A stretch of 64,000 bases of DNA. It comes from a virus. Taxonomy: Duplodnaviria; Heunggongvirae; Uroviricota; Caudoviricetes. The stretch is from the IMG/VR virus record IMGVR_UViG_2541047879_000001; one strand, written 5' to 3'. The notes beneath the pieces are model-generated. The model was not told the origin of the DNA and ran no database searches. It saw only the letters and a program-made list of their open reading frames with translations. Each line of letters opens with the position of its first letter. Positions within the stretch are counted from its first letter, which is position 1. The position numbers and the translations under genes were made by a program. Positions 23,222-46,036 of the stretch are shown one piece after another.

Positions 23222-23285
23222 TATCGTGTCTCCGTAACAACAGGCGGCATGGCAACGCCGCCCGGATAAAACTAAAGGTATCGAT

Positions 23286-23966: not shown

Positions 23967-23981
23967 TATTCACCTGCCTGC

Positions 23982-25206: not shown

Positions 25207-25209
25207 ACA

Positions 25210-26258: not shown

Positions 26259-26261
26259 GAA

Positions 26262-26804
26262 TTATTCCTCCGTCAGCGCCACATATTCAGAATGTTTAAT
26301 TTCCTGGCATTCTTCAGGAATACATCCGTTTATTTCCCTGCCATAAGCGCCCACTTTAAACACCACGCACAGGGCATCACGGGAGAACGAAGGGGTCCAC
26401 CAGGAGTCCGTGTTAAACATGGAGGGGATTCTCATTACCCCCAGCTTTTCACAGAGCCAGACAAGGAAATCAGGACGCTTTCTTAACTCGCGTTCAGCGG
26501 CTTCAATCATTGCGGCAATCGCCGGTCCTTCAGGGCATGACTCATCAGGTCTGGCTATAAAGCACTGTCCGCCACCGATAAAAGCCACATCATCGCGCTT
26601 ACGCCAGCCCGCAGGCAGAGCACCGGCAAAATAAAACTCACTGATTCTGTCCATGGCGAACGGCTTTAAGCGCAATCCGGCAGCGCCTGTATTTTTCAGT
26701 AATGTCCGAAGAATACTGTTGCGTAGCGGTAAAACAGCCTGTTGATATTTGGTGAAATATTTATTTGTCTGCACACGGTCTAATTTGAAATAAAAATATG
26801 CCAT
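26262..26804 (-). CDS. Hypothetical Mu-like early protein
   Basis: 180-aa ORF downstream of gam. Confidence 0.45.
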   Translation of the reverse strand: MAYFYFKLDRVQTNKYFTKYQQAVLPLRNSILRTLLKNTGAAGLRLKPFAMDRISEFYFAGALPAGWRKRDDVAFIGGGQCFIARPDESCPEGPAIAAMIEAAERELRKRPDFLVWLCEKLGVMRIPSMFNTDSWWTPSFSRDALCVVFKVGAYGREINGCIPEECQEIKHSEYVALTEE

Positions 26805-26901
26805 ATTTCCGATTCCTTATTTTCAGCTTTCAGGCGCAAGCAGTCCCCTGACGCGAGCGCCATAATTAAAATGAAGTGATATTTAAATAATTAATGCGGT
26901 G

Positions 26902-27432
26902 TTATTTATTCAGTCCGGCATCCTGTTCAAAAGGCTCGACATAAAAACTTTCAGCGCCTTTATTCACCTTTATACCGGCAATGCCTTTCACCGCATCCGG
27001 CTCCGCCAGGACGGCTTCCTTGTTCACTTCCTCTTTCGTGCGGATGAATCGCTCAAGCCCCATACGGCGCAGCGTGTCAATCACACCTTCCACATCACGG
27101 CTGACGCTGCATGATGGCGTTCCCAGCCGCCATGACACCGTTCCGGTGGTCAGATTGGCAGTTTTGGTTTTGCCGCCGTTCGTCAGCTCATCACGGTTGG
27201 TTTTACACCAGTCCTGAATCCCTTTAAAAAGCACTTTGATTTGCTTTTTAAGATTTTCAATCTGCGGCGTATAACGGGCGGTGATTTCTGCCACTTCATC
27301 ATTCATCGCCGTTTCCAGGCGCAGCGCCTCTCGCTGAATATCGCCCAGGGTGCGGATATCGCGGCTGACTTCTTCGCGGGTCTGCGGTGCGGCCTCGGCT
27401 ACAGCCTTTAATTTTGTAACGCGTTTTGCCAT
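26902..27432 (-). CDS. gam: Host-nuclease inhibitor Gam (Mu Gam/Ku-like DNA end-binding protein)
   Basis: 176-aa protein with the Mu Gam sequence signature (MAKRVTKLK...), correct position in early operon. Confidence 0.85.
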   Translation of the reverse strand: MAKRVTKLKAVAEAAPQTREEVSRDIRTLGDIQREALRLETAMNDEVAEITARYTPQIENLKKQIKVLFKGIQDWCKTNRDELTNGGKTKTANLTTGTVSWRLGTPSCSVSRDVEGVIDTLRRMGLERFIRTKEEVNKEAVLAEPDAVKGIAGIKVNKGAESFYVEPFEQDAGLNK

Positions 27433-27443
27433 TTTGTTTTTCC

Positions 27444-27764
27444 TTATTGCAATGTATCTGGTGCGTTCTGCAAGGAGCGGCGCTCAATGCTGCTTTTCAC
27501 CCCCAGAGCCTGCATGGAACCCTGAAGTTCATCTGTCAGAAACTGAATAATTGTGGGGCTGTGATATTTAAGAATTTGCGCATAAACATCACATGGGCCT
27601 GTCGGTCTGTTCTCCGTATCACGTTCGATTTTTACAGTGGCAGTAACCCCCTCCGTGATTTCCTGACTATCATTACCGGCTGGCTTTACTTCATGCATTA
27701 CGTGGTTAAATTCAAAAATAACGCGTACTTTGCTCATGGAATTACCCCTGCTGATTAAATTCAT
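27444..27764 (-). CDS. Hypothetical protein, paralogue A
   Basis: N-terminus MSKVRVIFEFNHVMHEV parallels neighbour MSKVVHIIFEYKEHVIHK. Confidence 0.45.
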   Translation of the reverse strand: MNLISRGNSMSKVRVIFEFNHVMHEVKPAGNDSQEITEGVTATVKIERDTENRPTGPCDVYAQILKYHSPTIIQFLTDELQGSMQALGVKSSIERRSLQNAPDTLQ

Positions 27765-28014
27765 TACCGTTAATAACCCCGGAAGCCATGCCCCTGTCTT
27801 TCATGAATGCACTGGCTTTCATTGCCACAAGCTCTGCGAAGTTTCTGCTTTCCGCGAGCATAACCCCCCCAAAAATCATGGCGGGTCCATCACCTTTCTG
27901 CTTTATCCCGGTTGAACGTATGTCCAGACTTACCCCCATGCGCACTGTTCCATCAGCGTTTTTATGGATAACGTGCTCCTTATATTCGAAAATAATGTGT
28001 ACGACTTTACTCAT
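27742..28014 (-). CDS. Hypothetical protein, paralogue B
   Basis: 90-aa ORF, tandem paralogue of 27444-27764. Confidence 0.45.
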   Translation of the reverse strand: MSKVVHIIFEYKEHVIHKNADGTVRMGVSLDIRSTGIKQKGDGPAMIFGGVMLAESRNFAELVAMKASAFMKDRGMASGVINGNEFNQQG

Positions 28015-28292
28015 CCTCTGGTCCTCGTTCTGTTTGGATAACTGACCCGGCGTCTGACCTCACGGCAGAACCGAATCATGGCATTAAAGGCTTCTTCCTC
28101 CGTCACCGCTTCCGGTATCCCCGGAACCAGTAACTGCTCCTGTTCATCACGTCCATGACGCGCCATAACCTCAATCACATGCCGTACCGTGGCAGGCTTT
28201 CCGGCAACTATCGGCAATGCACCTTCCGGCAGGACGTAACCAAACTCAATAAGACCACTCGACCACGCCCATGCAATGAGATTTTTTTTCAC
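28011..28292 (-). CDS. Hypothetical protein
   Basis: 93-aa ORF, translationally coupled. Confidence 0.4.
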   Translation of the reverse strand: MKKNLIAWAWSSGLIEFGYVLPEGALPIVAGKPATVRHVIEVMARHGRDEQEQLLVPGIPEAVTEEEAFNAMIRFCREVRRRVSYPNRTRTRG

Positions 28293-28293
28293 C

Positions 28294-28560
28294 TCACACC
28301 TCCCAGTAAACCGTGCAGCCGCTGATGCGGGTGGCCTTCACACGGCGGCGCAGGCCGTTGGTCTGTATGGTGATTTCAATTTCACCGGTTCCCTGCACGT
28401 TGCCTACCGGCGGCGTGGTTTTCAGTGCAAAACGTTGCGGATAGCGCTTACTGCGTTCCAGTACCGCACCGGCAAGTTCGGTCAGACGGCGCGCGCTGTT
28501 CAGGGAGTCGAATAAATTCATTTTGTTACCGCAGGATTGCATATTCATATAACACCTCAT
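28294..28560 (-). CDS. Hypothetical protein
   Basis: 88-aa ORF. Confidence 0.35.
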   Translation of the reverse strand: MRCYMNMQSCGNKMNLFDSLNSARRLTELAGAVLERSKRYPQRFALKTTPPVGNVQGTGEIEITIQTNGLRRRVKATRISGCTVYWEV

Positions 28561-28788
28561 TTAGCTGACTTGTTTCGCACCAACAGAACGGCATATTCCG
28601 CTGTAAACTTCTGTCGCACCTTCGCGATCAAGTCCGGCAGATATCACCATTCGTGTGCGGTCATTAAATTCAAAAAGTAAATCGCCACATTCTTTATTTT
28701 CGGCCAGTGAAATCACCTTCACGTTATCGAAATTAACCAGGTAAAAGCGTCCGTAAATATCAGGAATATTAAATACCGCCATAATCAC
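28561..28788 (-). CDS. Hypothetical small protein in the kil position downstream of B
   Basis: 75-aa ORF immediately after the B-like gene; positional analogy only. Confidence 0.35.
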   Translation of the reverse strand: MIMAVFNIPDIYGRFYLVNFDNVKVISLAENKECGDLLFEFNDRTRMVISAGLDREGATEVYSGICRSVGAKQVS

Positions 28789-29726
28789 ACCTGTGAGAGT
28801 AATTCAGGGTTGGTATAAACCTCTTTAAAGGCCGCATTAATATGTTTTTCTGTCAGCGCCGCGCCTTCACCGCTGGCGGTGAGCCACGCCTGGTTAAGCG
28901 TATGTGTCAGAACGCGTAACGCTCCCGGCTTTTCAGCGATAGCCTGCATGACGGCCAGCTCGGCCTCACCACTGATCCCCCACGCCATGGCAATGGCCAG
29001 CACATCCGCCTTTTTGGCCTTGCGAAGTTGTTTTGTACGGGCAAGACGGCTGAACAGGCGCGATAAATCATCAAAGGCGCGGCGTCCACCTTTAAACAAT
29101 CCGCGCGGGTTACCAATAAGCACCATCCCGATCCCCGTGGCGTCCTGAATTGCCCGGAGTTGCTCCAGACCGTCAATACCAAGATGATCCGCCTCATCCA
29201 CAATCACCAGTCCACGCGTTCCCATCAGGCGACGGCGGATGGCGCGGGATAATGCCCCTTTGTTCGCGCGGGTGTAATCAATCCCCAGCGCATCGGCCAG
29301 CTCCAGCAGACACTCCGTGACGCTGGAGTGCGCGGGTGACAGGGTGATCATCCAGGTGTTTGGTTGCTCCTGGCAGTAATTACGGGCAGTGGCCGTTTTA
29401 CCCACACCCGGTACGCCCACAATAACGTTAATACAGCCCATCAGGCGAACCGCCTGAAACAGTGCGCGCAGCTCCTGGACTGTCTGAGTTTCCACAAACT
29501 GCGGCGGTTCCGGCAGTGCGCTTTGTTTATTCCAGTTCTCATACCAGGAGCGCAGGGAAGCAGCCACAGCAGCGTTATCGCCTTTATATTTTCCCTTACG
29601 GAAAGCCGATAATGTGCCGTCGGAAATTCCCGCCTCTCTGGCGATGGCATACTGCGTCAGTACGCCGCCATCAATAAGTTCATCAATGGTCTTGATTACA
29701 TCGTTAATATCGGTCATATTATTCAC
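28785..29726 (-). CDS. B: DNA transposition protein B (MuB-like AAA+ ATPase)
   Basis: Walker A GVPGVGKT, Walker B LVIVDEADHL, N-terminal HTH; directly downstream of transposase. Confidence 0.85.
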   Translation of the reverse strand: MNNMTDINDVIKTIDELIDGGVLTQYAIAREAGISDGTLSAFRKGKYKGDNAAVAASLRSWYENWNKQSALPEPPQFVETQTVQELRALFQAVRLMGCINVIVGVPGVGKTATARNYCQEQPNTWMITLSPAHSSVTECLLELADALGIDYTRANKGALSRAIRRRLMGTRGLVIVDEADHLGIDGLEQLRAIQDATGIGMVLIGNPRGLFKGGRRAFDDLSRLFSRLARTKQLRKAKKADVLAIAMAWGISGEAELAVMQAIAEKPGALRVLTHTLNQAWLTASGEGAALTEKHINAAFKEVYTNPELLSQV

Positions 29727-29799
29727 CTCGCTTGAGACAGCATTCTCCGAGACTGAAACCTCAAATAACCTGAGTCACCCCTCGGGTTATTTTTTTATT

Positions 29800-31890
29800 T
29801 CAGGCCAGCGGATCACTTTCTTTTAATTTCGCTTCGAGCAACTGCAATCCCCGCTGGAAATTACGCTCGTATTCTTCATCAGGTTCATCGTCAGCGACCG
29901 GTTGCTGAACGGTCACCGTATTACCCACAGGGCGGTATATGTTTTCCAGCCAGGGCTCCTGCGGCTTGTGCTCCAGCACGTTGACAACCTCATCCTCGGC
30001 ATCACGGATTTTTTCCTCTGCGCGTTTACGCATGCCTTTAAGGCGCTGCTGCTGTTTGTAGTATTCCGCGCTGACAGGGAAGGCTTCGCGTTTATTGCCG
30101 TCCCATACCGCCTCGCAAATCACGCTGCCATCCGGGCGGCGCACGGTAATTCGTTCGGCATCATGAATGTCATAGCTGATAAGTACCTTACGGCCATGCT
30201 CGTCACGCAGCTCGGGCGCGTAGTAAATATTATTCAGCCAGCGTATTTCACAGCGTCTTACAGGGCGCTCCACCATCGGCCGGAACATATCCCGCAGTTC
30301 AACATCGGACAGCCATTCAATTTCCGTGTCCTCTTCCGCCAGGCGTTTTTTTCTGAACTCCGCCGGGCTGTAATGTTTACCGTTCGGCTTCATGGGTAAT
30401 TCATCGTGCGGCCGGTTGTTGTACCACTCAACACCGTCACGAATGGCATCAATCAGTTCAGACCAGGACGGTAAATCACGCATCGCTGACTGCTGCCGGG
30501 CGTTCAGCCGTTTGCCCTGTTGCAGGGCACTGAATGCCGAGCGTAAATCGCGGTTGGTTTTACGTAACGTCTCGCGATCTGCTCCTTTCCCGAAATAGGT
30601 GCGGTATTTACGGGCTATGCGCATCGGTAATGTGCGGTTAAGCCGTTCGATAATGCCCCGTCCCTGCGGATTACCGGCAATCCCTGTCGGGTGATTAATC
30701 CCCAGTCGTGGCAGTATCCCCACAATCTCCTTATCCAGGACGTCGGCGGTTTCCCCGGAGCCATTATCCGAGTAATACAGAAACGGTTTGCCATGATGGC
30801 GAATACCGTGCTGTATGGCACCGGCTACGGCGAAAACATTTTCAGCCAGGTCAAGGCTCCAGCCCACCACAAAGCGCGTGCCACCGTCGATAACAAAGGT
30901 CACTTCCGGTGCGAATGGCCGCCCGTGAACCGGGTGCGCGCATTTCAGCTTCATGCCGTGACCGTCACCAATCCAGACATAATTCACCGGCATTCTGGAC
31001 CAGTCGCGGCGCGTGAATCCCTCAAGCTGACGGTATTCACTGCCAGTTACCCGGCCTTTTTGTTTCACCACTTCCGGCAGTTTCTTCATTGCGCGGCGAA
31101 TGGTGTCATAAGAGGGCATGATATCGAGCATATAAGGCTCATCAGCGTGCCGGTGCTGCCATTCAGCAACAAAATCCTCGTAAGCCTCGGTCATTGGTCG
31201 GCCGTTTGACTGGCGATACTGCGCCAGAAATTCGGGCAGCCAGTTAATATCTTCGGCTTTTATTTCCTGGCGTTTACCCGGTGCCAGTAAAAGCAGGCGT
31301 TCAGCGGCGTTCTGTGCCTTGTTAAAGGCCGCAATCCAGCGTTTCAGCGTGATTTCACTCAACGCGCGGCTGTTTCCCTTTTTGGCGTTCGCCGTCTCAA
31401 CCATTGCCACAATGCGCTCGTCCAGTTGTGATCGTGCCAGGCTGTTAACGAGGAACCGGATAGCCTTAGCGCAACTAAAGCCGGGTTGTTGCGCGATTTT
31501 CAGCACCTCGCTGACGATCGCTATTCGTGCCTCTGCCACTTTACGTTGGTTTTCAGTCAGGGCATTGAGGCGTTCGACCATCAGTTGGGGTGATCCGCGA
31601 TATGCCTCCACCGCATCAACCACGGCAGGTGAGCGTCTGGCCTTTGTCACCACCGGAGCCGGTGATTCATCGGCTTTTTGCGTCATCAGTTGCAGGGCGT
31701 AGCGTTCACGTAATGCCTGCTGCGTCACTTCAGGTAAACAGTCGATGCTGTATTCAGTTGCTTTAGAGCCTGAGCGACGACGGGAACAACAGCTTTTCCC
31801 TTGTACGTAACGTTGTAATGCCTGGCGAATACCTTTTGTTGTAGCAGGCATTCCGGGCGCGCCAATCAGTTCTTTTGCAATGACATACAT
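29800..31890 (-). CDS. A: DDE transposase A (MuA-like)
   Basis: 696-aa protein with clear similarity to MuA, downstream of ner. Confidence 0.9.
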   Translation of the reverse strand: MYVIAKELIGAPGMPATTKGIRQALQRYVQGKSCCSRRRSGSKATEYSIDCLPEVTQQALRERYALQLMTQKADESPAPVVTKARRSPAVVDAVEAYRGSPQLMVERLNALTENQRKVAEARIAIVSEVLKIAQQPGFSCAKAIRFLVNSLARSQLDERIVAMVETANAKKGNSRALSEITLKRWIAAFNKAQNAAERLLLLAPGKRQEIKAEDINWLPEFLAQYRQSNGRPMTEAYEDFVAEWQHRHADEPYMLDIMPSYDTIRRAMKKLPEVVKQKGRVTGSEYRQLEGFTRRDWSRMPVNYVWIGDGHGMKLKCAHPVHGRPFAPEVTFVIDGGTRFVVGWSLDLAENVFAVAGAIQHGIRHHGKPFLYYSDNGSGETADVLDKEIVGILPRLGINHPTGIAGNPQGRGIIERLNRTLPMRIARKYRTYFGKGADRETLRKTNRDLRSAFSALQQGKRLNARQQSAMRDLPSWSELIDAIRDGVEWYNNRPHDELPMKPNGKHYSPAEFRKKRLAEEDTEIEWLSDVELRDMFRPMVERPVRRCEIRWLNNIYYAPELRDEHGRKVLISYDIHDAERITVRRPDGSVICEAVWDGNKREAFPVSAEYYKQQQRLKGMRKRAEEKIRDAEDEVVNVLEHKPQEPWLENIYRPVGNTVTVQQPVADDEPDEEYERNFQRGLQLLEAKLKESDPLA

Positions 31891-31891
31891 A

Positions 31892-32140
31892 TCATGACGC
31901 CTTTCTCATATAGCTCTTAACCTGGTATCGACTGGGCCAGATTTCTTCAGGTGATACCCCAAGAGCATCAGCAATTATTTGCTGATACGGTCGGCAAGGA
32001 GTACGTAATACGCTTTTCAGCGAATCCCTGCTGTAACCAGCCTTTAAAGATAAAGAGCGCAGTGATAAGCCAGCCATGTGTAAGCGCGCCTTGATGATTT
32101 CAGGCGGCCAATCGTGATCTGAAACTTCTCTTCTACTCAT
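31892..32140 (-). CDS. ner: Ner-like DNA-binding regulator (Ner/Nlp family)
   Basis: 82-aa HTH protein (LSLRSLSLKAGYSRDSLKSVL) first in the early operon. Confidence 0.8.
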   Translation of the reverse strand: MSRREVSDHDWPPEIIKARLHMAGLSLRSLSLKAGYSRDSLKSVLRTPCRPYQQIIADALGVSPEEIWPSRYQVKSYMRKAS

Positions 32141-32331
32141 ACTTCCTCTATTCTAAAAAGTTACCCGCGCGGATATTCGTGCGGATATCTGTACGGGTAA
32201 ATAATGCATCACCAAAAATACCAAATCAAGGTATTTTTGGTATTTTTGGCTAATTTTTGCTTTTATCCTTATTTTTCAATTGGATAAATAGAAAGAAACC
32301 TTTCCTTAGAAAAGCACCAAGAGGTATCTTT
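32141..32331. promoter_or_regulatory. Divergent early/repressor promoter-operator region
   Basis: Intergenic between divergent ner and repressor genes; inverted repeat ccaaaaatacc / ggtatttttgg and tandem ggtatttttgg copies around 32212-32250. Confidence 0.5.
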
Positions 32332-32862
32332 ATGTCGCAGGGAAAAGAACCTGTTATTGAACGTATTGGAATGCTTACAAAGCGCTACCCTTCAAGAAGT
32401 GCAGCTGCCAGAGCGTGGGGAATCAATATCAACACATTAAACAGCTATTTCAAGGGAGGACAAACACAACCAGCCCCCAGAGAAAGTATCCTTATACGAA
32501 TTTCTGAAAGTGAAGGCGTTAGTCTTGAGTGGCTTAAAGAGGGCAAGGGTGAATTACCAAACGATATTGGTATTTATGGTAATTTTGGTTGTTCTGGTGA
32601 TAAGGGAGATCAGCTTACACAGATGCTTTCATTCCTTACGAAAGACGAACGAGAACAGTTAACCAATCTCCTTGCTCGCAAAGGTGTAGAGACGGTTCTG
32701 ACACTGCTGAATAAAGAAAACCAGGATTTATTACAACTAGAAGGCAGGAAGCGCCTGGCTGCGTTGATGATTGTAGATATGCCAGACGATTGCGTCAGAG
32801 AGATTTTGGAAAAAACCGAGACAAGTAGGCAATCAAATCCGGTAGAATCTAAAGCGGGTTAG
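32332..32862 (+). CDS. Putative prophage repressor (Mu c-type position)
   Basis: HTH SRSAAARAWGININTLNSYF; divergent from ner-A-B at the prophage end; start at internal ATG with RBS aagagg. Confidence 0.6.
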   Translation: MSQGKEPVIERIGMLTKRYPSRSAAARAWGININTLNSYFKGGQTQPAPRESILIRISESEGVSLEWLKEGKGELPNDIGIYGNFGCSGDKGDQLTQMLSFLTKDEREQLTNLLARKGVETVLTLLNKENQDLLQLEGRKRLAALMIVDMPDDCVREILEKTETSRQSNPVESKAG

Positions 32863-32869
32863 TTTGGCG

Positions 32870-33112
32870 AGGCTGGCCCGTATGTTAGTTGCCATATAGA
32901 TTTAATGAAGTTTTAAACGCTTTAAAAAGTTGAGATCGCAGTATCAAAAGTTTTGCCGATTTTAGAATAAACGATTAATTATTGCACAATCGATATCAAA
33001 TAGACTTTAAGCGCTCATCCAGACATCACCTGTTTTATTTCAGTATCTTACAGGTGATTTCACCTCCTTTCACTAAAACCCTCGTTGGTATCAAATGATT
33101 CACCTGGTTACA
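32870..33112. repeat. Mu-like left-end terminal region with putative transposase-binding repeats
   Basis: Repeated CACCTG/TCACCT motifs (33026, 33052, 33099) and terminus ...ggttaca at 33106-33112. Confidence 0.5.
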
Positions 33113-33620
33113 CGGTAGCGCCCGTGTACTGGTTGCTACTGATGTTGCTGCGCGTGGTCTGGATATTAAATCGCTTGAGCTGGTGGTGAACTTTGAGCTG
33201 GCGTGGGACCCTGAAGTTCATGTACATCGCATCGGTCGTACAGCTCGTGCAGGAAATAGCGGTCTGGCGATCAGTTTCTGTGCTCCGGAAGAAGCACAGC
33301 GGGCCAATATCATTTCTGACATGTTGCAGATAAAACTTAACTGGCAAACGCCGCCAGCTAATAGTTCCATTGTGCCGCTGGAAGCAGAAATGGCAACGTT
33401 GTGTATCGATGGCGGGAAAAAAGCCAAAATGCGCCCGGGTGATGTATTAGGTGCACTGACAGGAGATATCGGGCTTGATGGCGCAGATATTGGCAAAATC
33501 GCCGTGCATCCGGCGCATGTCTATGTCGCGGTCCGTCAGGCTGTTGCTCATAAAGCATGGAAACAGTTACAGGGCGGGAAGATTAAAGGAAAAACGTGCC
33601 GGGTGCGGTTATTAAAATAA
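33113..33620 (+). pseudogene. dbpA: 3' fragment of ATP-dependent RNA helicase gene dbpA, disrupted by the Mu-like insertion
   Basis: In-frame translation (G)[18 protein letters not shown]...[10 protein letters not shown]... through the C-terminal RNA-binding domain to stop at 33618-33620; no start codon or N-terminal helicase motifs. Confidence 0.8.
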
Positions 33621-33659
33621 TGAAATGTTGAATTGCCGGGTGCAAGAGTAAACATCTTA

Positions 33660-33742
33660 TTCGGGATTGCCGGATGCGACGCTGGCCGCGTCTTATCCGG
33701 CCTCCATAAGAGTAGCCCGATACGCTTGCGCATCGGGCGCTA
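33660..33742. repeat. REP (repetitive extragenic palindromic) elements
   Basis: gccggatgcgacgctggccgcgtcttatccggcctcc and gcccgatacgcttgcgcatcgggcgc palindromes between convergent dbpA and ttcA. Confidence 0.6.
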
Positions 33743-33748
33743 TCCTGG

Positions 33749-34684
33749 TTATTTCACTTCAACCACATTCAGTCGTAACTCATCCAACTGATTTTCATCT
33801 TCTTCTGGCTGCCAGCCCGCCGGTTGTAGTGGGATCTCTTCGCGATCAAACGCCAGATCACCCCCGTTAACCACTTCAGAACCGTGGGTAATGCCTTTAA
33901 AATCGAACAGGTTGGTATCGCACAGATGCGACGGCACCACATTCTGCATCGCGCTGAACATCGTCTCGATACGCCCTGGATAACGTTTATCCCAGTCACG
34001 CAACATGTCAGCAATCACCTGACGTTGCAGGTTAGGCTGTGAACCGCACAGGTTGCACGGAATAATCGGGAACGCTTTTGCATCGGCAAATCGCTGAATA
34101 TCTTTCTCGCGGCAGTAGGCCAGCGGACGAATAACGATATGTTTGCCATCATCGCTCATCAGTTTCGGAGGCATACCTTTCATCTTGCCGCCGTAGAACA
34201 TATTTAAGAACAACGTTTGCAGGATATCGTCACGATGGTGACCCAACGCGATCTTCGTCGCCCCCAGTTCCGTTGCGGTACGATAAAGGATACCGCGACG
34301 AAGGCGAGAACACAGTGAGCAAGTGGTTTTGCCCTCTGGAATCTTCTCTTTCACGATACCGTAAGTATTCTCTTCAACAATCTTGTACTCAACGCCCAGC
34401 TTTTCAAGATACTCGGGCAGAACGTGTTCCGGGAAGCCCGGTTGCTTTTGATCGAGGTTAACAGCCACCAGCGAAAAATTGATTGGCGCGCTTTGCTGCA
34501 AATTGCGCAGAATCTCCAGCATGGTATAGCTGTCTTTACCCCCGGAGAGGCAAACCATGATGCGATCGCCTTCTTCAATCATATTGAAGTCAGCAATGGC
34601 TTCGCCCACGTTACGACGCAGACGTTTTTGTAATTTGTTCAGGTTGTATTGTTCTTTCTTTGTAATTTGTTGATTTTCTTGCAT
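33749..34684 (-). CDS. ttcA: tRNA 2-thiocytidine biosynthesis protein TtcA
   Basis: 311-aa protein with PP-loop SGGKDS and Cys clusters. Confidence 0.9.
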
Positions 34685-34735
34685 TATTTCAGTTCTCTGG
34701 TACTAAATGGGGCAAATTGGGGGCAAACTTTGCAA

Positions 34736-35971
34736 CTACGATAACCGCGCATTCAACATGGCTATCTGTTCGTCGTTCATGTCATCAATCCACATACCGT
34801 AAATTTCATACACCATCTGCGCAGTTTCATGCCCCATTTGGCTGGCTATAAATGCCGGGTTCGCTCCTGCCGTCAACAGCCAGCAGGCAAAAGTATGCCG
34901 CGTATGGTACGGATTACGGCGGCGAATACCAGCACGTTTTACTGCTGCATTCCACCTTGCCCCCAAACTGCTTACCGAGTAATAAGGTTTTTGTTTTCCG
35001 TTACACACCCTGGGCATGAAAACAAAATGCAGTTTTTGCTTTTCGGTTCTGCCGTACTCCCGATGATAAAAGGTGATTTCGCTTTTGCGATGATGCCCGG
35101 TCAGTTTGTATTGCTCCTTCAGTGCTTCAAGAGCAGGCTGCAGTAGTGTTACTGTTCGGATCCCGGCATTTGTTTTTGGGGGACCGAACATATCAAGTAT
35201 CGTCAGGTTTCTTCTGACATTCACTATTCCCTTTTCGAGATCCACATCCTCCCACGCCAGAGCTGCCAGTTCCCCGTGACGAAGTCCTGAGTAAACGGCA
35301 AATTTCCACAAGTTCTGGCTCTGTCCTTTTTCACTTTCCATTAATGCATTGAATTCTGTTTTAGATAACGGATCAGGCTTTATTCTGTTTCGCTGTAATT
35401 TTTTTACTCCTTCAAATGGTTTGGTTGATATAAATCCCGACTGATACGCAAAACGCAACAGCGAACAGAGCAGGGCGATATAGTTATCAACTGTGCGCAC
35501 GGTTCTTCCTTTTTTGTTGGATCTTGGATTATCCAGGTAAAGCGTTTCTCCATGCAGCAGTTCATTCCGGTAGTTTAAGATATCGCTATAACGAATATGT
35601 GATATCGGGGTACTTTCACAAATTATTATTCTGAGTGTTTTTAATTGTGATTTCGTTTTCTTCATTGTGTTTGTTGTTAACTCTGTCTCTTTAATTTTTG
35701 TCCAGATATCACAAAGCTCTCCGAACGTTTTTATGACTCTCGTTGTCACCATTTTTGCCCCAGTGCTGGACTGGGGAAAACGTCTTAAATACTCAAATTC
35801 ACCGGAGTTTATTTCATGAACTATCAGCGCTCTTAAATTTCCGGCCTTTTTAATATTACTGTTTGTAATCTCCCAGCCTTTTAATGTTTCCCGACATCGT
35901 TTTCCTCGAAACATGAACCAGATGCGAATGTATCTACCTCTAATCTCGACACCTGTTGGTAATTTAGACAT
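34736..35971 (-). CDS. intR: Tyrosine integrase (IntR-like)
   Basis: 411-aa protein with R...HxxR...Y catalytic region (HTRHTFACWLL...YGMW), adjacent to ttcA. Confidence 0.9.
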   Translation of the reverse strand: MSKLPTGVEIRGRYIRIWFMFRGKRCRETLKGWEITNSNIKKAGNLRALIVHEINSGEFEYLRRFPQSSTGAKMVTTRVIKTFGELCDIWTKIKETELTTNTMKKTKSQLKTLRIIICESTPISHIRYSDILNYRNELLHGETLYLDNPRSNKKGRTVRTVDNYIALLCSLLRFAYQSGFISTKPFEGVKKLQRNRIKPDPLSKTEFNALMESEKGQSQNLWKFAVYSGLRHGELAALAWEDVDLEKGIVNVRRNLTILDMFGPPKTNAGIRTVTLLQPALEALKEQYKLTGHHRKSEITFYHREYGRTEKQKLHFVFMPRVCNGKQKPYYSVSSLGARWNAAVKRAGIRRRNPYHTRHTFACWLLTAGANPAFIASQMGHETAQMVYEIYGMWIDDMNDEQIAMLNARLS

Positions 35972-35972
35972 A

Positions 35973-36212
35973 TCATGAGTCTTTGATAAACTGATTTATC
36001 TTTGGATAGTTGTACCAGATAATCCCTCGTTTGCTGTCTGGCTTACCTAAAGGAGATACTCGTTTGAAGTGGAAGCCCTCCACCCAACAGTTCTGGCGGT
36101 ATGCTTCAATTTGTCTGGCCCCCAGACCAGTGCGAAGCATCAGGCCGTATTCAACCATCCACTCTTCATTAAAGATTACTTGTGCCATCGCATCACCTCT
36201 GGCAGGCGCCAA
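35973..36212 (-). CDS. Excisionase-like protein
   Basis: 79-aa basic ORF directly upstream of integrase. Confidence 0.55.
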
Positions 36213-36266
36213 TGTTAGACTGAAATTGACGCCCGATGTTGATTATTAATAATCAGCTATGAAGTT

Positions 36267-36488
36267 TTAATTTGAATACAATGCAATTCTCGAGGACTGA
36301 AGTTTCTCGCAATTAAAATTTATCAGTTTTACTTTCTGCTCTCTGGAAACGCCTGCTTCTTTTTTACCTGAGAGCATTTTTTCGTATTCTGATTTCGTTA
36401 GTTTAGATTTTGAATATCTTGTCCAGTTAGTAGGAGTGCCACCTTCCTTTTCAATAGTGGCGGTAATTTTATACATGAACACCTCCAT
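36267..36488 (-). CDS. ydaC: YdaC/RcbA-like small protein
   Basis: Small ORF in Rac order between xis and ralR; start chosen at internal Met. Confidence 0.45.
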   Translation of the reverse strand: MEVFMYKITATIEKEGGTPTNWTRYSKSKLTKSEYEKMLSGKKEAGVSREQKVKLINFNCEKLQSSRIALYSN

Positions 36489-36702
36489 TATTATTTCCAG
36501 TGGTTCGTTTATTCCATCTTTCGAGTGCTTCTTTTTCACTTCCACCATAACCGGTTCGGGATTCGCATCCGTTACACTTCGCTCGGTAATATCCTGAAAT
36601 GGCTTTCACCGTTACTGATGGACAACCACAAAATGGACATGGTTTAACATTGTCATATCTCATAATTTTTCTCATAAAAAATATTTCAAGTTGGCGGTGC
36701 AT
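36469..36702 (-). CDS. ralR: Restriction alleviation protein Lar/RalR
   Basis: 77-aa protein with CPFCG...CNGC zinc ribbon, immediately upstream of recT. Confidence 0.7.
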   Translation of the reverse strand: MHRQLEIFFMRKIMRYDNVKPCPFCGCPSVTVKAISGYYRAKCNGCESRTGYGGSEKEALERWNKRTTGNNNGGVHV

Positions 36703-36719
36703 TACACCGCCAGGCTGAA

Positions 36720-37529
36720 TTATTCCTCTGAATTATCGATTACACTGTATTCCCCGGTTAATACAGAGGAATCTGCAGGATCGATTGTCAGTGGTTCCTT
36801 TTCATCCATTGATACTGCACGCTGGATCTCAATTGATACGGGCAGATATTTGAACAGGCGACGAATAGCCGTTTTCTTTGCCATTTCTTCCCAGTGAGTT
36901 ACCCACGGCCCGTTATTACCAGCTTTACTCAGGCTGCGCACCAGCTCAATCTGTTTGCGCGTCATAACTTCAAACTGAGTACCTCCGTCTTTCAGTCTTG
37001 CGACAGCATAGACGTGGGTAACCGGGGCATCTTCGTTTTCTCCCGGGCGGTGTATTAACTTTTCATCAAGGCCAAATTCGAAGCTAAACTCGTCACCTTC
37101 ACGGACAACACGGGCTGACAGGCTGGCGATTTGACCAGAACGGCGAGCCAGATCAATCATGCCGCGATAGCCAATGATTAGCTGAACGTTCTTTTTACCG
37201 CTCTTTTCGTTTTTATTACCAAAAGGCAGTAAATATGCATGACCGAGGGCGCTACCTGGCTCAAGTCCGAGCTGTGAACACTGTACGATCGCACTGACAA
37301 AACTCATAGTGTCACAGTTTCCTAACGCCGGAACTTTACGAATTTCTGTGGTGGCGATACGGATCATACGTTCAGCCGTCATATGGCGTGGAAGAGCTGC
37401 TGCCAGTTGCTCTTTCATTGATGGCTGGTTAATAAAACTAATCACGTCGCTATTTTTAACTGCTGCTGGTGCACGGTTTCCCTGAGTTTTTTGCAGATCG
37501 GCTTTTGCGATTGGTGGTTGCTTAGTCAT
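36720..37529 (-). CDS. recT: Recombinase RecT (single-strand annealing protein)
   Basis: 269-aa product from internal start MTKQPPIAK... matching Rac RecT. Confidence 0.9.
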
Positions 37530-40122
37530 TTGCATATTCCTTAGCCCAGCGGGGCAGTGATAATGTCTTAATAGCTGGCCATTCATCGGTATTCAGGCAG
37601 TCAGACAGGGTTCGCAGATTGCGGTGATATTCCTGTTGACCTGCCAGTTTTGCTTCTTCGCCCATCATGAAAATTTCAACCGGATAACGTCCGCATTCAA
37701 TAGTTGTGCTGGCAACCAGAAAAACGAAAGTTGGCTGCACTCCAAACTGTGCTTCATAACCGTCACTGTAGAATGCATCCTGAACGTGATAGCGGTAGTC
37801 GTAATAAGCGGTTTTGAATCGTTGAATATCCGCCGTAGTTTTCACGTCCATGATCCAGTGAAATTCAGGGATAATTTTGTCCGGACGGCACCGACACAAA
37901 ATTCCTGTTTCAGGATCTTCCCAGTAAATTGATGATTCAGCGTGTCCGGCGCTTTCAACAAGCCATTGCCCCAGCGGCAAAGCCATAACGCTTTGATACA
38001 TGAGTTCAATTTTCCGGCCTTCTTCCGCAGTGATAACCGTTTTTCCTGTGCTTGCGCATTCCATCAGAAACGCTTTCTCTTCTTCTTTTCCGGCGTTTGT
38101 ACGGCGGTTAAATTCAGGTGCTACGATAAAGCGGTTACTGAATTCTTCCGGTTCAAGTACCCGGCAGTGGAAAGCAGTTCCTAAATCGAGCGTTTTTGTC
38201 TTTGTGGTGTCCACGGGGGCATTTTTACGCCACAAATATAGTGCCGGAGTATCAGCAATGTCATCGAGCTGAGACTTACTGATACCGGGACCCGCGTGGT
38301 AATTCTCATTCGAAATTCCGTAATAAATACCTGGCTCTATGTCTTCTACGATTACGGGATCTGCGACTTCGCCAGTTTCATCACTGCAATCGCGATGCGG
38401 ATCGCTGCCAGCATTCTCATTGTGCGGATGTTCAGCGCCTTCCATTTCCTCCGGATCATTTTCCTTAGCTTCAACCTGACTCTCTTCAGCGAATGTTTCC
38501 TGGTATGTTGCGTCGCCCATCACCGCACCACAGTCAGGGCAGTTATCCCCGCCAGTCTGGCCGCAGGCATTGCAGGCTATTTCCGGTTCCTGTTGCACTA
38601 CTGGCTCAGGTTGATTCATATCTGGGCTGGTTTTTTCCGTTTCTGGCTGGTTCTGGTACACACAATCGCGAGTCTGGATCCCCTTTACCCATTTCGGATC
38701 GTTCGGGTCGCTAATTCCGTCAACAAATTCACCACGTGATGCAGCAAGCAATTTATCGGCATCGACAGGATTTTTTGATGGAATGTTTTTCCGGGCTTCA
38801 TGGAGTTCTGCCCGCAGTTCCTGATATTTCGCATCAACAGAATTTACCTGTGACTGAGCATCCAGCGGCTGCGTGTCCTGATGATGTTCAGTTGCGTCCG
38901 GTTCCATTGTTTCAGCCTCTCCCTGTTCAACTGCCGTTGTTCCAGATGGTTGCGGTTTTTCTTCATCATCCTGTTTTCCTTCTTCTGTTACTCGCTGCGG
39001 CATCGGGGCAGAGGAGCGACCGCAGGCAATATCCACGATTTCCGGATCAGGGTTGGCATGATCGGTTTCAGTCAGTACTTTGTTCAGATATTCAGTGACG
39101 TGCGCGGGGATGACCTCGATCCCAATTGGTGCTTCTTTTACGGACGCAACCACGATGGCGCGGGAATAATCCAGCCCGCCAGGCATGGTGATGAATTTGT
39201 CGCGGAAAACAGAAAAGGGCGGTTTATTTTCAGCGATAATTTCCTCAATGCGTTTAGCGTGTGCCGGATGAAGGTTATAGATGTCCAGATCCATTGAACG
39301 GGCCAGTACGCCAGTGGCTACGTCGCGCGCCAGTGACGTCAGATCGTGTACGAAACTTTCGCCGCGATCGGTGAGGTTTCCGCCGCCAGCATTAGCACCG
39401 GAAGCCGTGCGAGTGATGTGTGAAACACGATTACCCTTCATCCACTCTTTTGTCAGCAGTCCTCGATCGGTGTAGTCAGCGTTCAGGTATGCTTCGAAAA
39501 AAGCAGTTATCAGTCCCAGGTTTGAATTACCAGGATTAGGGAAAACTTTGTCAGTGTCACGAACCAGTTTGTGGAGTTCGCGAATTTCCAGCGGGTCGAG
39601 CAGGCTGGTTTTGTGGGAAACAGCCAGGGCAGTAACAGCCGGTAGTTCTTCAGCCCGAGCAATGTGTAATGCCTGGAGTCCGTCGCGTGAAACGTGCGTT
39701 ACCGGTTTTTCGCTGCCGTGTTGAGCAAGCCAACGAATGGGCAGTTCCTGGCCAGAAATTGGGAGTAGCATATTCTCCTCAATCTCAGTCATGTCTTCGC
39801 CGTTGACGTTGGTATTGCCTTGATAGTGAGCGTTGTCTGGTGCTGCTCCCGGTTTTAGTTCCCATGTCATGGAGTCTTTGCTGAGTTGATAGCGTTCACT
39901 CCAGGTAAAATCGATCTCACCTTCAGCGGGCAGGTCATTAACGACAGGAAAATTCGTGGCAACAGCTTTAAAATAGCTGCTCAGTTTTTTACCTGACTTA
40001 ACGATCAGGTAGTCCAGAGTGGCACAGGTCGATTCAAAATCGTTGCTTGCCCACAGGACGACGTCAGGTTCACCGGATGATTTTTTCGCTTTCCGTAACA
40101 GGAAGAGTGGTTTTGTGCTCAT
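37522..40122 (-). CDS. recE: Exonuclease VIII RecE
   Basis: 866-aa ORF overlapping recT start. Confidence 0.9.
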
Positions 40123-40223
40123 TGTTTTTTAACCTCAACTCAGATTAAAATTCGTTTTGTTCAGTGAATGATCTTGCCGGATACACACTGTTCATAGCCT
40201 GCGCCATACGCAGGCTATTTCTT

Positions 40224-40499
40224 TCAGATTTCACCTTTTAATTTCATTGCAATTAGAGTTGCCAGAAATTCGGCTTTTTTTTCTGCGGGCAGATTCTTTC
40301 CGATATGCACCAGGCACATTTTTTTGACACCTTCATCAAGTGTTTTTACGTTGCCTGATGGACCATCGATATCAACCACAGTGAATGGGGTTTCTTTATT
40401 TTCTGTTTTAATTACGTAGCCAATGCGCTTTCCTTCCAGATTCACCTCGTGAACAATGTCATCGGTAGTTACAACAGTGGCTTCATAATTGGTAATCAT
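40224..40499 (-). CDS. racC: RacC-like protein
   Basis: 91-aa product from internal start MITNYEATVV..., upstream of recE. Confidence 0.6.
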   Translation of the reverse strand: MITNYEATVVTTDDIVHEVNLEGKRIGYVIKTENKETPFTVVDIDGPSGNVKTLDEGVKKMCLVHIGKNLPAEKKAEFLATLIAMKLKGEI

Positions 40500-40573
40500 G
40501 TTTTTCTCCTTAATTAAGGTTGAGCGAATACCTGCCATTTCTGGCATAAATTCAGTTTCGAATAGTCAATTAA

Positions 40574-40744
40574 TTAAAGTTCATGTGCCATCTGGTCTTT
40601 TTCGGCACAAGCTTCACTGCAATATTTTCTCGGTTCGTCTTTTGATAAAATCCCGTGCATGAAGTGAAGCATTCTTTCAATAGCTTTGCTTTCTTCAACG
40701 TCTTTTTTGCAAAGGTGGTAAGCACATTTTATTTTCTTAGTCAT
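40574..40744 (-). CDS. ydaE: YdaE-like small zinc-binding protein
   Basis: 56-aa [17 protein letters not shown]...CSEAC, ATGA overlap with kilR; below track cutoff, found by reading. Confidence 0.6.
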   Translation of the reverse strand: MTKKIKCAYHLCKKDVEESKAIERMLHFMHGILSKDEPRKYCSEACAEKDQMAHEL

Positions 40745-40965
40745 CACCATGACTCCGCCTTTACAGGTAAACCATCACGACCGAGGAAGACTTTAATCAT
40801 GCGGTCAGTAATGCATGTTTTTGTGGTCAGGTTACGAATATATAGTTTTCGCTTTTTAATATTGTTTGCCGAGGCAATATATGTCCGGCCTTCATGAAGA
40901 ACATAATCGCCAGGAGTCACACACTGACGTGGTATTTCATCAGTTCCGAAGTGATGTGCAATCAT
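40744..40965 (-). CDS. kilR: Killing protein KilR (FtsZ inhibitor)
   Basis: 73-aa product from [10 protein letters not shown]..., Rac order. Confidence 0.65.
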
Positions 40966-41406
40966 AATTATCTCCATTTTTACAAATGAACTTTGTTGAT
41001 GCGGTGCCTGGTGCCTCCAGGTGACTGCAACCAGTTAACAATTACAGTCGGCTTTCCCACCCAAACCAATAAGGACTAACATGACTTTTAACTGTGCCAC
41101 GTGCGCTTAGCCGCATTCACCGCATCACAAAATTCACTTTAAAAAGGGCGGACATCAGCCGAACTTCAAGAAAAAAACTGATGCCGCCAGGACTACACAC
41201 AGCAATGTCGTTATTTACAACCGGAGGCGCACTCCCACCATTTAAATTTAACAGACAAGACCGACTCTTTATGGATATCGGAAATGCGCCTTCGTGTTGT
41301 GCCCGGTTTTATTTCACCACCTCCGGGCTTCGGTGGTCTCGGCTATACCCCTACAGCGAGAGCTTGTGTTAACATTTCAATACCCTTACAGTTGAGAGTT
41401 ATTGAT

Positions 41407-41895
41407 ATGTTGGATGTATTTACTCCATTGTTGAAACTTTTTGCTAACGAGCCACTCGAAAGACTTATGTATACGATTATCATTTTTGGTCTCACTCTCT
41501 GGCTGATACCGAAAGAGTTTACTGTCGCATTCAATGCTTATACTGAAATACCTTGGCTCTTTCAGATTATCGTTTTTGCCTTTTCTTTCGTGGTCGCCAT
41601 TTCCTTCTCAAGATTGCGAGCACATATTCAAAAGCATTATTCATTACTACCAGAGCAACGAGTATTGCTTCGTTTATCTGAGAAAGAAATCGCTGTATTT
41701 AAAGATTTCCTTAAAACAGGAAATCTTATTATCACTTCTCCTTGCCGTAACCCGGTTATGAAAAAATTAGAACGGAAGGGCATCATTCAACATCAGAGTG
41801 ATAGCGCAAACTGTTCTTATTATCTCGTCACCGAAAAATACTCCCATTTTATGAAGTTATTCTGGAACAGCAGGAGTAGACGTTTTAATCGTTAG
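41407..41895 (+). CDS. sieB: Superinfection exclusion protein SieB
   Basis: 162-aa membrane protein from internal start MLDVFTPLLK..., convergent with ydaF. Confidence 0.8.
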   Translation: MLDVFTPLLKLFANEPLERLMYTIIIFGLTLWLIPKEFTVAFNAYTEIPWLFQIIVFAFSFVVAISFSRLRAHIQKHYSLLPEQRVLLRLSEKEIAVFKDFLKTGNLIITSPCRNPVMKKLERKGIIQHQSDSANCSYYLVTEKYSHFMKLFWNSRSRRFNR

Positions 41896-42047
41896 CTTAC
41901 TGTGTGCTTCTCCAACCATCGGCGCGCACCAGTTTCGGTTTTAAATGTTTTGCTTTTGGTATACGTCATGGCAGTGAACGTTCCATCCTGGTTGGGGAAC
42001 ACGCCGCACACCAGGGATTCGTTGTTGACGAGGTCGATTTTTTGCAT
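41892..42047 (-). CDS. ydaF: YdaF-like small protein
   Basis: 51-aa ORF MQKIDLVNNES... found by reading (below track cutoff). Confidence 0.5.
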   Translation of the reverse strand: MQKIDLVNNESLVCGVFPNQDGTFTAMTYTKSKTFKTETGARRWLEKHTVS

Positions 42048-42057
42048 TTTGCGAATC

Positions 42058-42192
42058 TCACATCTTGTAGCTACGTATAGCGACTTCTGCCTGCCAGAGA
42101 TCCCAGTCGTTGCTGCGTAAAGCCTGCACAGCCTGGTTGTAAGTGATACCGCAACAATCCATCAAATACTGAACTACTTCGTAATGCACCAT
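42058..42192 (-). CDS. ydaG: YdaG-like small protein
   Basis: 44-aa ORF MVHYEVVQYLMDCCG... found by reading. Confidence 0.5.
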   Translation of the reverse strand: MVHYEVVQYLMDCCGITYNQAVQALRSNDWDLWQAEVAIRSYKM

Positions 42193-42479
42193 CTTATCTA
42201 TCCCCTTAACGCCGGGTGGCGGAACTAACTGCTGCACTGCAAAATTTGAATCCCGCCGTCATGTTCATACGCCTCGGGCTGGCTACTTAACCCCTGACCA
42301 CTGCCTGGTAACTCGAAGTATTGCCCGGCGTTCTGTGGGGCGGGGTGGGTTGGTAGGTATATAATGTACTTTGTGTTCATCATTGTAAAGTACTTTAAGT
42401 ACCTTTTATGTATAAAAAAATGAGACGGGATAAAGTGAAGCACAAACCCGGAGGGGGACGCTACCGGATTTATGCTGGT

Positions 42480-42899
42480 TTAAGAGGCTTTTTGTTTTTT
42501 CTTTCGTGCTAACTCTTCGTAAATTGCATTGTACTTCTGTTTTTTCTCCTCAAGAGTTTTTAAAAGTTCATCTGTCTCACTGTCAGGGAGCTCGTCCAGA
42601 AGGTCAATGATGATTTTTTGTCTTGGATTTAACTCCTGATAGAAACGTATCTGTCCACTTTCTTCTGTATCCTCTCCCAAAAGATAGGTTGGTGTTGTTC
42701 CAATGAGTGTTGCTAATTCCCTTAATTTCTCTCGGCGAGGAATTGTTTCACCATTAAACCATTTGCTAACCGCTTTTGGTGTTAATTTCATTCGACGGGC
42801 AATTTCTGCCTGCCTTCCATGTTGTTCATAACCAGCGTTTTCACAGGCTAGCGCAAGCCTACTGGCGAACTCTTTACGCGCTTTATCTTCATGAACCAT
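42480..42899 (-). CDS. racR: Prophage repressor (RacR/cI-like HTH protein)
   Basis: 139-aa HTH protein divergent from cro-like gene. Confidence 0.7.
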   Translation of the reverse strand: MVHEDKARKEFASRLALACENAGYEQHGRQAEIARRMKLTPKAVSKWFNGETIPRREKLRELATLIGTTPTYLLGEDTEESGQIRFYQELNPRQKIIIDLLDELPDSETDELLKTLEEKKQKYNAIYEELARKKKQKAS

Positions 42900-42978
42900 A
42901 AGTTCAATGATATTCGCTCTTGAATGTACTGTCAGTTCTGTTATAGCATGTACTCAAAGTTCACATTGTGAGGATGAT
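42900..42978. promoter_or_regulatory. Divergent repressor/cro promoter-operator region
   Basis: Short intergenic region between divergent racR-like and cro-like genes; positional inference. Confidence 0.4.
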
Positions 42979-43652: not shown

Positions 43653-43729
43653 TTGAAATTAATCGTACCGAACTGTTTTGTTCGGTATCAGTTAAATGTA
43701 ACGCTGCGAGCGTTACAAGGTGAAAACAA

Positions 43730-44518: not shown

Positions 44519-44524
44519 CTGACC

Positions 44525-45271: not shown

Positions 45272-45293
45272 TTTTTACCGGGAGGAAATTTTA

Positions 45294-46019: not shown

Positions 46020-46036
46020 TTCCTGGGGAGGGCTTA

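Follow-up and report, generated by a model that had tools for sequence, protein, structure and literature searches.

The closest described relatives of the phage analysed here are Sp18 of E. coli O157:H7 Sakai, Phi804-3 of strain FRIK804 and the Mu_JNE phages carried in Stx phages (LC727881 and LC727895). Sp18 does not respond to induction with mitomycin C. It is efficiently packaged but not circularised (PMC2669165); the literature portrays it as a Mu-like phage that is intact and packaged and whose insertion sites vary from strain to strain and often lie in other mobile elements (PMC2669165, PMC7430833, PMC10132054). Bacteriophage Mu, with D108 and SfMu, is a transposable myovirus with an early region ordered c-ner-A-B-kil-gam...mor, MuA/MuB-type transposition proteins, Mu-type head and tail modules, com/mom, an invertible host-range segment and essentially random integration sites flanked by a short duplication. 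In canonical Mu, this duplication is 5 bp and both phage ends carry CA; replicative Mu transposition also causes deletions, inversions and replicon fusions. A third relevant system is Rac, the cryptic prophage of E. coli K-12, which has its att core in the 5' end of ttcA and the gene order intR-xisR-ralR-recT-recE-racC-kilR-sieB...trkG.

The stretch of DNA analysed here, 64,000 nucleotides in all and called the window below, holds parts of both kinds of prophage on either side of a truncated dbpA gene (Table 1). Aligned to uninterrupted E. coli loci, the window shows dbpA-ttcA-intR homology beginning abruptly at 33112/33113. On the phage side of the break, the sequence ends in ...GGTTACA at 33112, preceded by ...CACCTGGTTACA; from 33113 onward it is E. 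coli dbpA starting at nt 867 (codon G290), so that the junction reads GGTTACA followed by CGGTAGCG, and the dbpA frame restarts at 33114 in codon G290. The alignment thus bears out a sequence-only reading of this locus, which had placed a Mu-like prophage in dbpA and had the gene resume midway directly after ...ggttaca. To the right of the break follow the dbpA remnant, two REP palindromes, ttcA and the Rac-type prophage. The remnant lacks its own start codon at the break, is 100% identical to dbpA in many E. coli genomes and encodes the C-terminal piece of Helicase_C together with the DbpA RNA-binding domain. A test for full-length dbpA (DEAD, Helicase_C and DbpA RNA-binding domains) failed, as the window holds codons 290-457 only, and the window also lacks the 6 kb, from abgR into the 5' part of dbpA, that precede the break point in the reference. 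The cut falls within the second RecA-like domain and leaves motifs V and VI with the RNA-binding domain on the 3' piece; judged from this division, neither piece would make a functional helicase. Deletion of dbpA, which encodes a 23S rRNA-dependent DEAD-box helicase, is reported to be neutral. The remnant contains a 145-aa ORF with a GTG at 33183 and the RNA-binding domain; a look-up of this ORF returned GCA_000193935.2 only, in which an IS3-family element interrupts dbpA, a different event.

Table 1. Coordinates of the features in the window
Feature	Position	Strand	Remarks
Sp18-type Mu-like prophage, partial (33,112 of 39,483 bp)	1..33112	-	total length from KE701494.1
MuB-type AAA+ target-capture ATPase, 310 aa	28785..29717	-	PF09077 Phage-MuB_C on the identical L036 gene
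MuA-type DDE transposase, 696 aa	29800..31890	-	PF09299 Mu-transpos_C, E = 2.1e-17; PF02316 HTH_Tnp_Mu_1, E = 2.2e-6
Ner-like HTH protein	31892..32140	-	PF13693 HTH_35, E = 2.5e-19
Repressor (c-like), 176 aa	32332..32862	+	divergent from ner-A-B; start agrees with relatives' annotation
Left (c/attL) phage terminus	33053..33112	-	reads inward TGTAACCAGGTGAATCATTTGATACC...; shared motif TTTGATACC at 33087-33095
Right-hand copy of 4-bp target-site duplication CGGT (dbpA nt 867-870)	33113..33116		far and near junctions compared
dbpA 3' remnant	33113..33620	+	nt 867-1374; codons G290-457 from 33114
Two REP-type palindromes, dbpA-ttcA intergenic	33669-33701 and 33715-33738		inverted repeats GCCGGATGCGACGC/GCGTCTTATCCGGC and GCCCGATACGC/GCGCATCGGGC
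ttcA, intact (311 aa)	33749..34684	-	PP-loop family match; annotated ttcA in thousands of genomes
Rac-type att core TTGTTCAGGTTGTATTGTTCTTTCTT in first codons of ttcA	34635..34660		single exact match, 0 expected by chance
Rac-type lambdoid prophage, partial	34635..64000		runs past window end
intR	34736..35971	-	Arm-DNA-bind_2 + Phage_integrase

The element to the left of the break is a Mu-like prophage, as had been recognised from the letters: genes for MuA, MuB, Ner, the repressor, Gam and Mor are all present, as are Mu-type morphogenesis genes. The early region has the Mu order of divergent repressor, ner, A, B, kil, gam ... gemA and mor, with matches in sequence to HTH_35, Kil_protein, Phage_Mu_Gam, GemA and Mor; the repressor gave no Pfam match. 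The MuB gene lies directly downstream of the transposase and is 100% identical to that of the AF39 copy, against which all 46 genes compared proved full-length and without stops. The morphogenesis module comprises the DUF935 portal, gpT capsid, Gp36/37/45/46/48, sheath and tube, with the Pfam matches scored on the genes of L018, an assembly 100% identical to window 1-14357. Position 1 of the window falls within a tail-fibre gene, placing the mom/com/invertase end ~6.4 kb further left; the continuation in L018 and L019 encodes Resolvase, Zn_ribbon_Com and Mom, and window 1-54 has an inverted match 1.2 kb further out, marking an invertible segment. The prophage is a complete-looking, intact-looking Sp18-type element of 39.5 kb, and on its gene content the copy in the window may well be active. 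An ARAGORN scan of the window gave no tRNA; PGAP places a 'tRNA-OTHER' in relatives.

The phage in the window is 97-98% identical to prophages of other E. coli genomes and shares its gene order with Sp18 and relatives, at ~92-98% nucleotide identity over a shared 25 kb. Common to all of them are a length of ~39 kb, identical termini, 4-bp duplications, variable insertion sites and, at the far end, mom/com with an invertible tail-fibre segment that carries a Gin-like recombinase. They differ in insertion site, which is dbpA here, sorM in Sakai and prpD/prpE in FRIK804 (PMC7430833), and in the repressor allele, with 176 aa here versus 194 aa in some Sp18 relatives (43% identity). An accessory ORF of 180 aa at 26262-26804 is likewise variable between the phage in the window and the Sp18 relatives. 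Likeness to Mu at the DNA level is only patchy, ~72% over roughly 570 bp.

On the right, the exact att core coincides with the annotated start of K-12 Rac, 50 bp inside ttcA, and delimits the second prophage on the left. With intR adjacent and the Rac gene set following, the neighbour is indeed the Rac-type prophage at ttcA that had been proposed. It contains intR, xisR, ralR, recT, recE, racC, kilR, sieB, a cargo island, lysis genes, trkG and terminase, with xisR through sieB and trkG identified from the annotation of L001 and L025, which are 99.4-99.85% identical. The prophage is 99.4% identical to Rac-like genes of O26 strain 11368 and 99.85% identical over 30.9 kb to its counterpart in WGI31CT, which there continues into capsid and tail genes. 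No second att core occurs in the window, and the Rac-type prophage therefore runs off the window end. Compared with K-12 Rac, this copy is much larger, with terminase, capsid and tail genes kept in the corresponding WGI31CT copy; another difference from K-12 Rac is the cargo island, which encodes an anti-phage dGTPase, an MBL-fold hydrolase and a DUF4145 protein.

Because the att core sits at 34635, within ttcA, the host DNA between the two prophages spans 33113-34634, or 1,522 bp. The ~640 bp given previously must be corrected, since 636 bp reaches only as far as the ttcA stop codon; for annotation, the Rac boundary belongs inside ttcA and not at intR. Of the compact pile-up described by the sequence-only reading, the adjacency of two prophages stands at this larger distance, and their closeness appears coincidental: in WGI31CT, the same Rac-like prophage lies beside an intact dbpA, that is, an empty site. 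The Mu insertion would therefore be later and unrelated, and the Mu-like element is probably the younger of the two.

One could suppose instead that the closeness is functional or targeted, with the phage preferring resident prophages or with dbpA-ttcA acting as a hotspot. Among CC119 STEC, 6 of 10 Sp18-like phages lie inside mobile elements (PMC10132054), three copies in our comparison (L010, L011 and L015) and those of the two Stx phages sit in lambdoid or Rac-like DNA, and L015 represents an independent insertion ~5.7 kb from ttcA. Purifying selection acting on random insertions would, however, also enrich for dispensable DNA, and the copies examined in other genomes have 14 different flanks, mostly ordinary chromosomal genes. 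Moreover, the dbpA site was found in one lineage only, with the near junction found in 0 of 5,426 complete RefSeq E. coli genomes, and the Rac-like prophage is unchanged where it borders intact dbpA. We thus regard targeting as improbable. Rather, the Rac-type prophage would be the older occupant of its usual ttcA att site, and proximity would reflect the coincidence of random Mu-type target choice.

The counterpart of the junction was found in the scaffold KE701494.1. Two stretches, 24.4 kb in total, were compared with the window (1-14357 and 25800-35890 in window coordinates), and both are 100% identical. In this scaffold, the two junctions stand 39,483 bp from each other: dbpA...AACGGT is followed by TATAGCG..., and at the other end GGTTACA is followed by CGGTAGCG. 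Here, the 5' 870 nt of dbpA are parted from the 3' piece by the 39.5-kb phage. The 5' part of the gene had been predicted to lie beyond the right (mom) end of the phage, outside the window and 37-40 kb to the left; in KE701494.1 it does so at 39.5 kb, ~6.4 kb past the window edge. The far junction was also read in L018, L019 and L020 as ...GCTAACGGT followed by TATAGCG, and a predicted 326-aa DbpA(1-290) fusion ORF is the same as the gene called at this junction. Among complete genomes, CP056613.1 carries the near junction and CP056902.1 the far junction, with coordinates consistent with simple insertion. As the far junction was read from assemblies identical or near-identical to the window rather than from the window, it is extrapolated to the window's own genome, in which the mom end ...CGCCGCGCTATA (minus strand) is in all likelihood joined to dbpA nt 1-870 ending in AACGGT.

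Junctions at the dbpA site occur in at least four assemblies, closed genomes among them, and the insertion must therefore be inherited within a lineage. GTDB species-representative genomes gave 0 matches to the predicted far junction and 0 to the junction in the window; the lack of the near junction from the RefSeq set indicates that the lineage is uncommon.

Taken together, we are confident that an Sp18-type Mu-like phage inserted in dbpA by simple transposition, with duplication of CGGT. In the mechanism that we propose, the 39.5-kb phage would have integrated by DDE transposition of the MuA/MuB type into dbpA, a non-essential DEAD-box helicase gene, after nt 870 (codon G290), duplicating the 4 bp CGGT; the window would represent the left (repressor) end of the phage and the dbpA 3' remnant, with the mom end and the dbpA 5' part ~6.4 kb to the left, and the insertion would subsequently have been passed on in a lineage. 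With one junction only visible in the window, and with internally deleted phage copies existing elsewhere (L009, L014 and L030), the break might alternatively be one edge of a rearrangement mediated by Mu (deletion, inversion or replicon fusion), the dbpA 5' part being lost or located elsewhere. This we consider very improbable: in KE701494.1, the 5' part of dbpA directly adjoins the mom end and bears the matching CGGT, at a distance of precisely one phage length (39,483 bp) from the near junction, and the coordinates of the near junction in CP056613.1 and the far junction in CP056902.1 fit simple insertion. Mu-like prophages occupy up to five places per genome and such repeats can mislead assemblers, yet a chimera joining a prophage end to dbpA is hardly credible for a break that coincides exactly with the conserved end of the phage, whose reciprocal junction bears the matching 4-bp duplication and which recurs with it in at least four independent assemblies, closed genomes included.

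The phage termini ...GGTTACA and TATAGCG... are identical at the 14 different flanks in other genomes, and in the independent insertions examined the host flanks diverge straight after ...GGTTACA; the same termini at unrelated flanks point to transposition and not site-specific integration. At the mom end, the motif TTTGATACC stands in the same register. In each of seven independent insertions of this phage, two of them annotated by the depositors in GenBank, 4 bp of target are duplicated. A 5-bp duplication had been anticipated; duplicated bases are indeed found at both ends of the phage, but their number is four. Reading the terminal A as host DNA gives a 5-bp duplication ACGGT that fits the dbpA insertion, L004 and L005, but fails in L003 (T versus A), L014 (C versus A) and L023 (T versus A), and a fifth base on the other side mismatches everywhere except in L014. 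Of six cases, the fifth base is thus mismatched in three on one side and in five on the opposite side; since it fails on both sides and the depositors' annotation agrees with four, 4 bp is preferred.

The canonical signature of Mu is accordingly not found: the duplication is 4 bp versus 5 bp, and the c end has TG/CA but the mom end has TA where Mu has CA (the values for Mu being established knowledge). These observations lead us to favour, with some reservation, the view that the geometry of the Sp18-type MuA homologue departs from the Mu paradigm in a 4-bp stagger and TA at the mom end. In the literature surveyed, this geometry is recorded solely as feature lines of two GenBank entries. If true, the Sp18 family would provide a natural variant for the stagger length of the DDE transpososome and its tolerance of non-CA ends; the dbpA insertion itself would still be ordinary.

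The insertion is an event of an ordinary and already documented kind, as publications already cover this family of phages, the variability of their sites and their landing in or near other prophages, and the importance of the insertion outside annotation is slight. It nevertheless supplies a clean lineage marker (dbpA::Mu-like with CGGT duplication) and what would be a natural dbpA knockout, as well as a worked example of how transposable prophages come to lie near other prophages through chance and tolerance, not design. In delimiting Sp18-type Mu-like prophages, duplications of 4 bp and not 5 bp should be expected. The repressor gene is transcribed toward the dbpA junction, and a terminator scan from this gene to the dbpA remnant yielded one weak candidate only, at 32854-32881.

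The window carries a known Sp18-type Mu-like prophage beside a Rac-type prophage, an ordinary feature that the sequence-only reading rightly recognised; dbpA is a new yet unremarkable site for this already known prophage. That the break in dbpA is real and sharp, as had been proposed, follows from a database search, an alignment and the domains of the remnant. In a megablast search, 5,393 of 5,426 complete E. coli genomes match window 32870-34736, the match beginning no earlier than query base 243 (window 33112) and running over dbpA, ttcA and intR; none of the 5,426 contiguously covers the first 242 query bases. Alignment to the uninterrupted dbpA-ttcA locus of O26:H11 strain 11368 (L001), a comparison that the earlier reading had called for, likewise places the junction at window 33112: L001 6001-13625 corresponds to window 33112-40737 as a single block (99.4%), and the 6 kb upstream of the break in L001 (abgR, smrA, dgcM, zntB, ynaL and the dbpA 5' part) occurs nowhere within the window. 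Translation of 33114-33620 yields the 46 C-terminal residues of Helicase_C together with the DbpA RNA-binding domain, dbpA being broken directly after codon G290.

The prophage end inside the window is the left (c) end, as the gene order from the junction (repressor, Ner, transposase, MuB, Kil, Gam) establishes. GemA, Mor, lysis genes and a Mu-type head, tail and baseplate set also lie further from the junction, with Pfam matches for the MuB-to-baseplate genes read on loci 99.97-100% identical to the window, and window position 1 falls within a tail-fibre gene. The window covers 46 genes of the AF39 copy, and here each of them has a full-length counterpart free of stops. Prophages at unrelated chromosomal positions in 272 of the 5,426 complete genomes are 92-98% identical to window 8200-33111, as are the 'inserted Mu-like phage' regions in two Stx-phage records. 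The literature calls this family Sp18-like, with strain-specific integration sites (PMC2669165, PMC7430833, PMC10132054); Sp18 itself is predicted to be intact and is efficiently packaged without circularisation (PMC2669165), and in one STEC lineage 6 of 10 copies lie within other mobile elements (PMC10132054).

Genes of the Mu-like prophage nearest the junction
Feature	Window coordinates	Strand	Remark
Repressor, 176 aa	32332-32862	+	divergent from early genes
Ner-like protein	31892-32140	-	HTH_35
696-aa protein	29800-31890	-	Mu-transpos_C and Mu DNA-binding domain

Several parts of the element vary among relatives. Two repressor (immunity) types, neither with a Pfam match, share 43% identity: 176 aa (window, L002 and the FRIK2069 copy L004) and 194 aa (AF39, O111:H8). 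A 180-aa ORF without a Pfam match (26262-26804, minus strand), between gam and a Gp11-like gene, occurs in L004, L011, L013 and L028 and is missing in the closest relatives, L002 and L003 (AF39), and is therefore a variable accessory module. PGAP annotates a 'tRNA-OTHER' in relatives between the virion-morphogenesis and minor-head genes (L003 24517-24596; window ~14640-14757); ARAGORN found no tRNA genes anywhere within the window. Window 1-54, inside the tail-fibre gene, has an inverted copy (91%) ~1.2 kb further out, adjoining a serine recombinase gene in assembly GCA_041338255.1 (L018, reverse complement, 5471-5523). The two probably serve as crossover sites for inverting a G-segment-like host-range switch; this inverted-repeat region differs by 55 bp between L018 and scaffold KE701494.1 (L019).

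Complete, cleanly inserted copies define the termini. In L003 (in dcyD), L004 (dcuC), L005 (O111:H8, caiB-caiC spacer) and L014 (a further site), the right (mom) end begins TATAGCGCGGCG... and the c end closes ...CACCTGGTTACA, directly flanked by the 4-bp repeats TGTA, TAAT, TTGG and CAGT, respectively. Empty dcyD sites align up to the base preceding TATAGCG, and other phage copies align from there on; the motif TTTGATACC, at positions 18-26 from each terminus and hence in equal register, supports these end points. Depositors annotate GATG and AGAG as a 4-bp 'duplication due to insertion of Mu' in LC727881 and LC727895. A 5-bp duplication, as the sequence-only reading expected, was rejected: on neither side does a fifth base match consistently, and the duplication is 4 bp in seven of seven insertions. 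On these grounds the Sp18-type family makes 4-bp duplications; its c end (window 33106-33112) has TG/CA and its mom end closes in TA (L018 reverse complement, position 343), unlike canonical Mu, which differs in duplication length and has CA at the mom end. As far as we found, these traits are on record only as the LC727881/LC727895 feature lines. The CAGT-flanked site is common to several assemblies (L009, L014, L030, L033); some copies have large internal deletions, such as the one in L030 that joins a truncated MuB to the baseplate region, and such losses show decay of resident prophages.

A scan of the species-representative genome collection returned neither the near nor the far junction; assemblies with them were reached by exact-protein look-ups with the window's repressor, a baseplate protein and MuA. 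The repressor led to CP056613.1, with the same junction and 99.97% identity to window 22330-42862. The baseplate protein led to L018, L019 and CP056902.1 (L020), which match window 1-14357 at 100%, 100% and 99.87% and continue leftward through an invertase, a DUF6645 protein, com and mom to the far junction, ...GTACGTTTTGCTAACGGT|TATAGCGCGG, with dbpA up to L001 position 6005. In these assemblies the 5' part thus lies beyond the right end, outside the window, where it had been placed. MuA led to a second locus on KE701494.1, 100% identical to window 25800-35890, with the near junction GGTTACA|CGGTAGCG. On that scaffold the phage spans 714693-754175 (39,483 bp); the 5' fragment and the duplication sought at the other end are both present, with CGGT (dbpA nt 867-870) on both sides. 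The 5' fragment runs on into the phage end as a 326-aa ORF, the gene called there.

The insertion in dbpA is simple: MuA/MuB-type strand transfer with a 4-bp stagger would have been followed by vertical inheritance. The dbpA insertion was read directly in at least four assemblies, with up to 19 further places similar. Targeting near prophages is not needed, given 14 different flanks in other genomes and a dbpA site confined to one lineage, and selection alone predicts enrichment in dispensable DNA. Rearrangement is contradicted by the spacing of the two junctions, a single phage length, in a scaffold that matches the window without a difference over both compared stretches, and an assembly artefact by the presence of the junctions in at least four independent assemblies, closed genomes included.

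Because domain 1 is cut off from helicase motifs V and VI as well as from the RNA-binding domain, DbpA activity should be lost, which would be tolerated since dbpA is dispensable. Read-through from the repressor gene, which is oriented into the remnant and followed by only a weak terminator-like site, is possible but unsupported. In GCA_000193935.2 (L006 7751-10438, L007) an IS3-family element independently broke dbpA, a second natural knockout; the gene call for the 5' fragment gives 303 aa, which puts the break close to codon 290, and the same 145-aa C-terminal ORF is left.

The neighbour is indeed Rac-like at ttcA: the annotated start of K-12 'cryptic prophage Rac', 50 bp inside ttcA, maps to window 34635 (TTGTTCAGGTTGTATTGTTCTTTCTT, found once within the window, 34635-34660). 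The host DNA between the prophages is thus 33113-34634, or 1,522 bp, rather than the ~640 bp first estimated; what lies 636 bp away is the stop codon of ttcA. Within this interval are the 508-bp dbpA remnant, a spacer holding a pair of REP palindromes and, of ttcA, most of the gene instead of the whole. Rightward follow, in Rac order, intR, xisR, ralR, recT, recE, racC, ydaE, kilR and sieB, then a replication module, cargo island, lysis genes, trkG and the large terminase gene, in which the window ends. A 99.85% identical copy in strain WGI31CT, which goes on into capsid and tail genes, lies beside an intact dbpA; the Rac-type prophage was therefore resident earlier and the Mu-type phage landed beside it later. 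By the annotation of that copy, the cargo island (~46668-52219) encodes an anti-phage deoxyguanosine triphosphatase, an MBL-fold hydrolase, a DUF4145 protein and a Hok/Gef toxin, none of which K-12 Rac is known to carry. The same phage also inserted independently in the Rac-like region of CP151349.1 (L015, position 10781), ~5.7 kb from ttcA and with dbpA intact, giving a Mu-like and Rac-like juxtaposition of separate origin.
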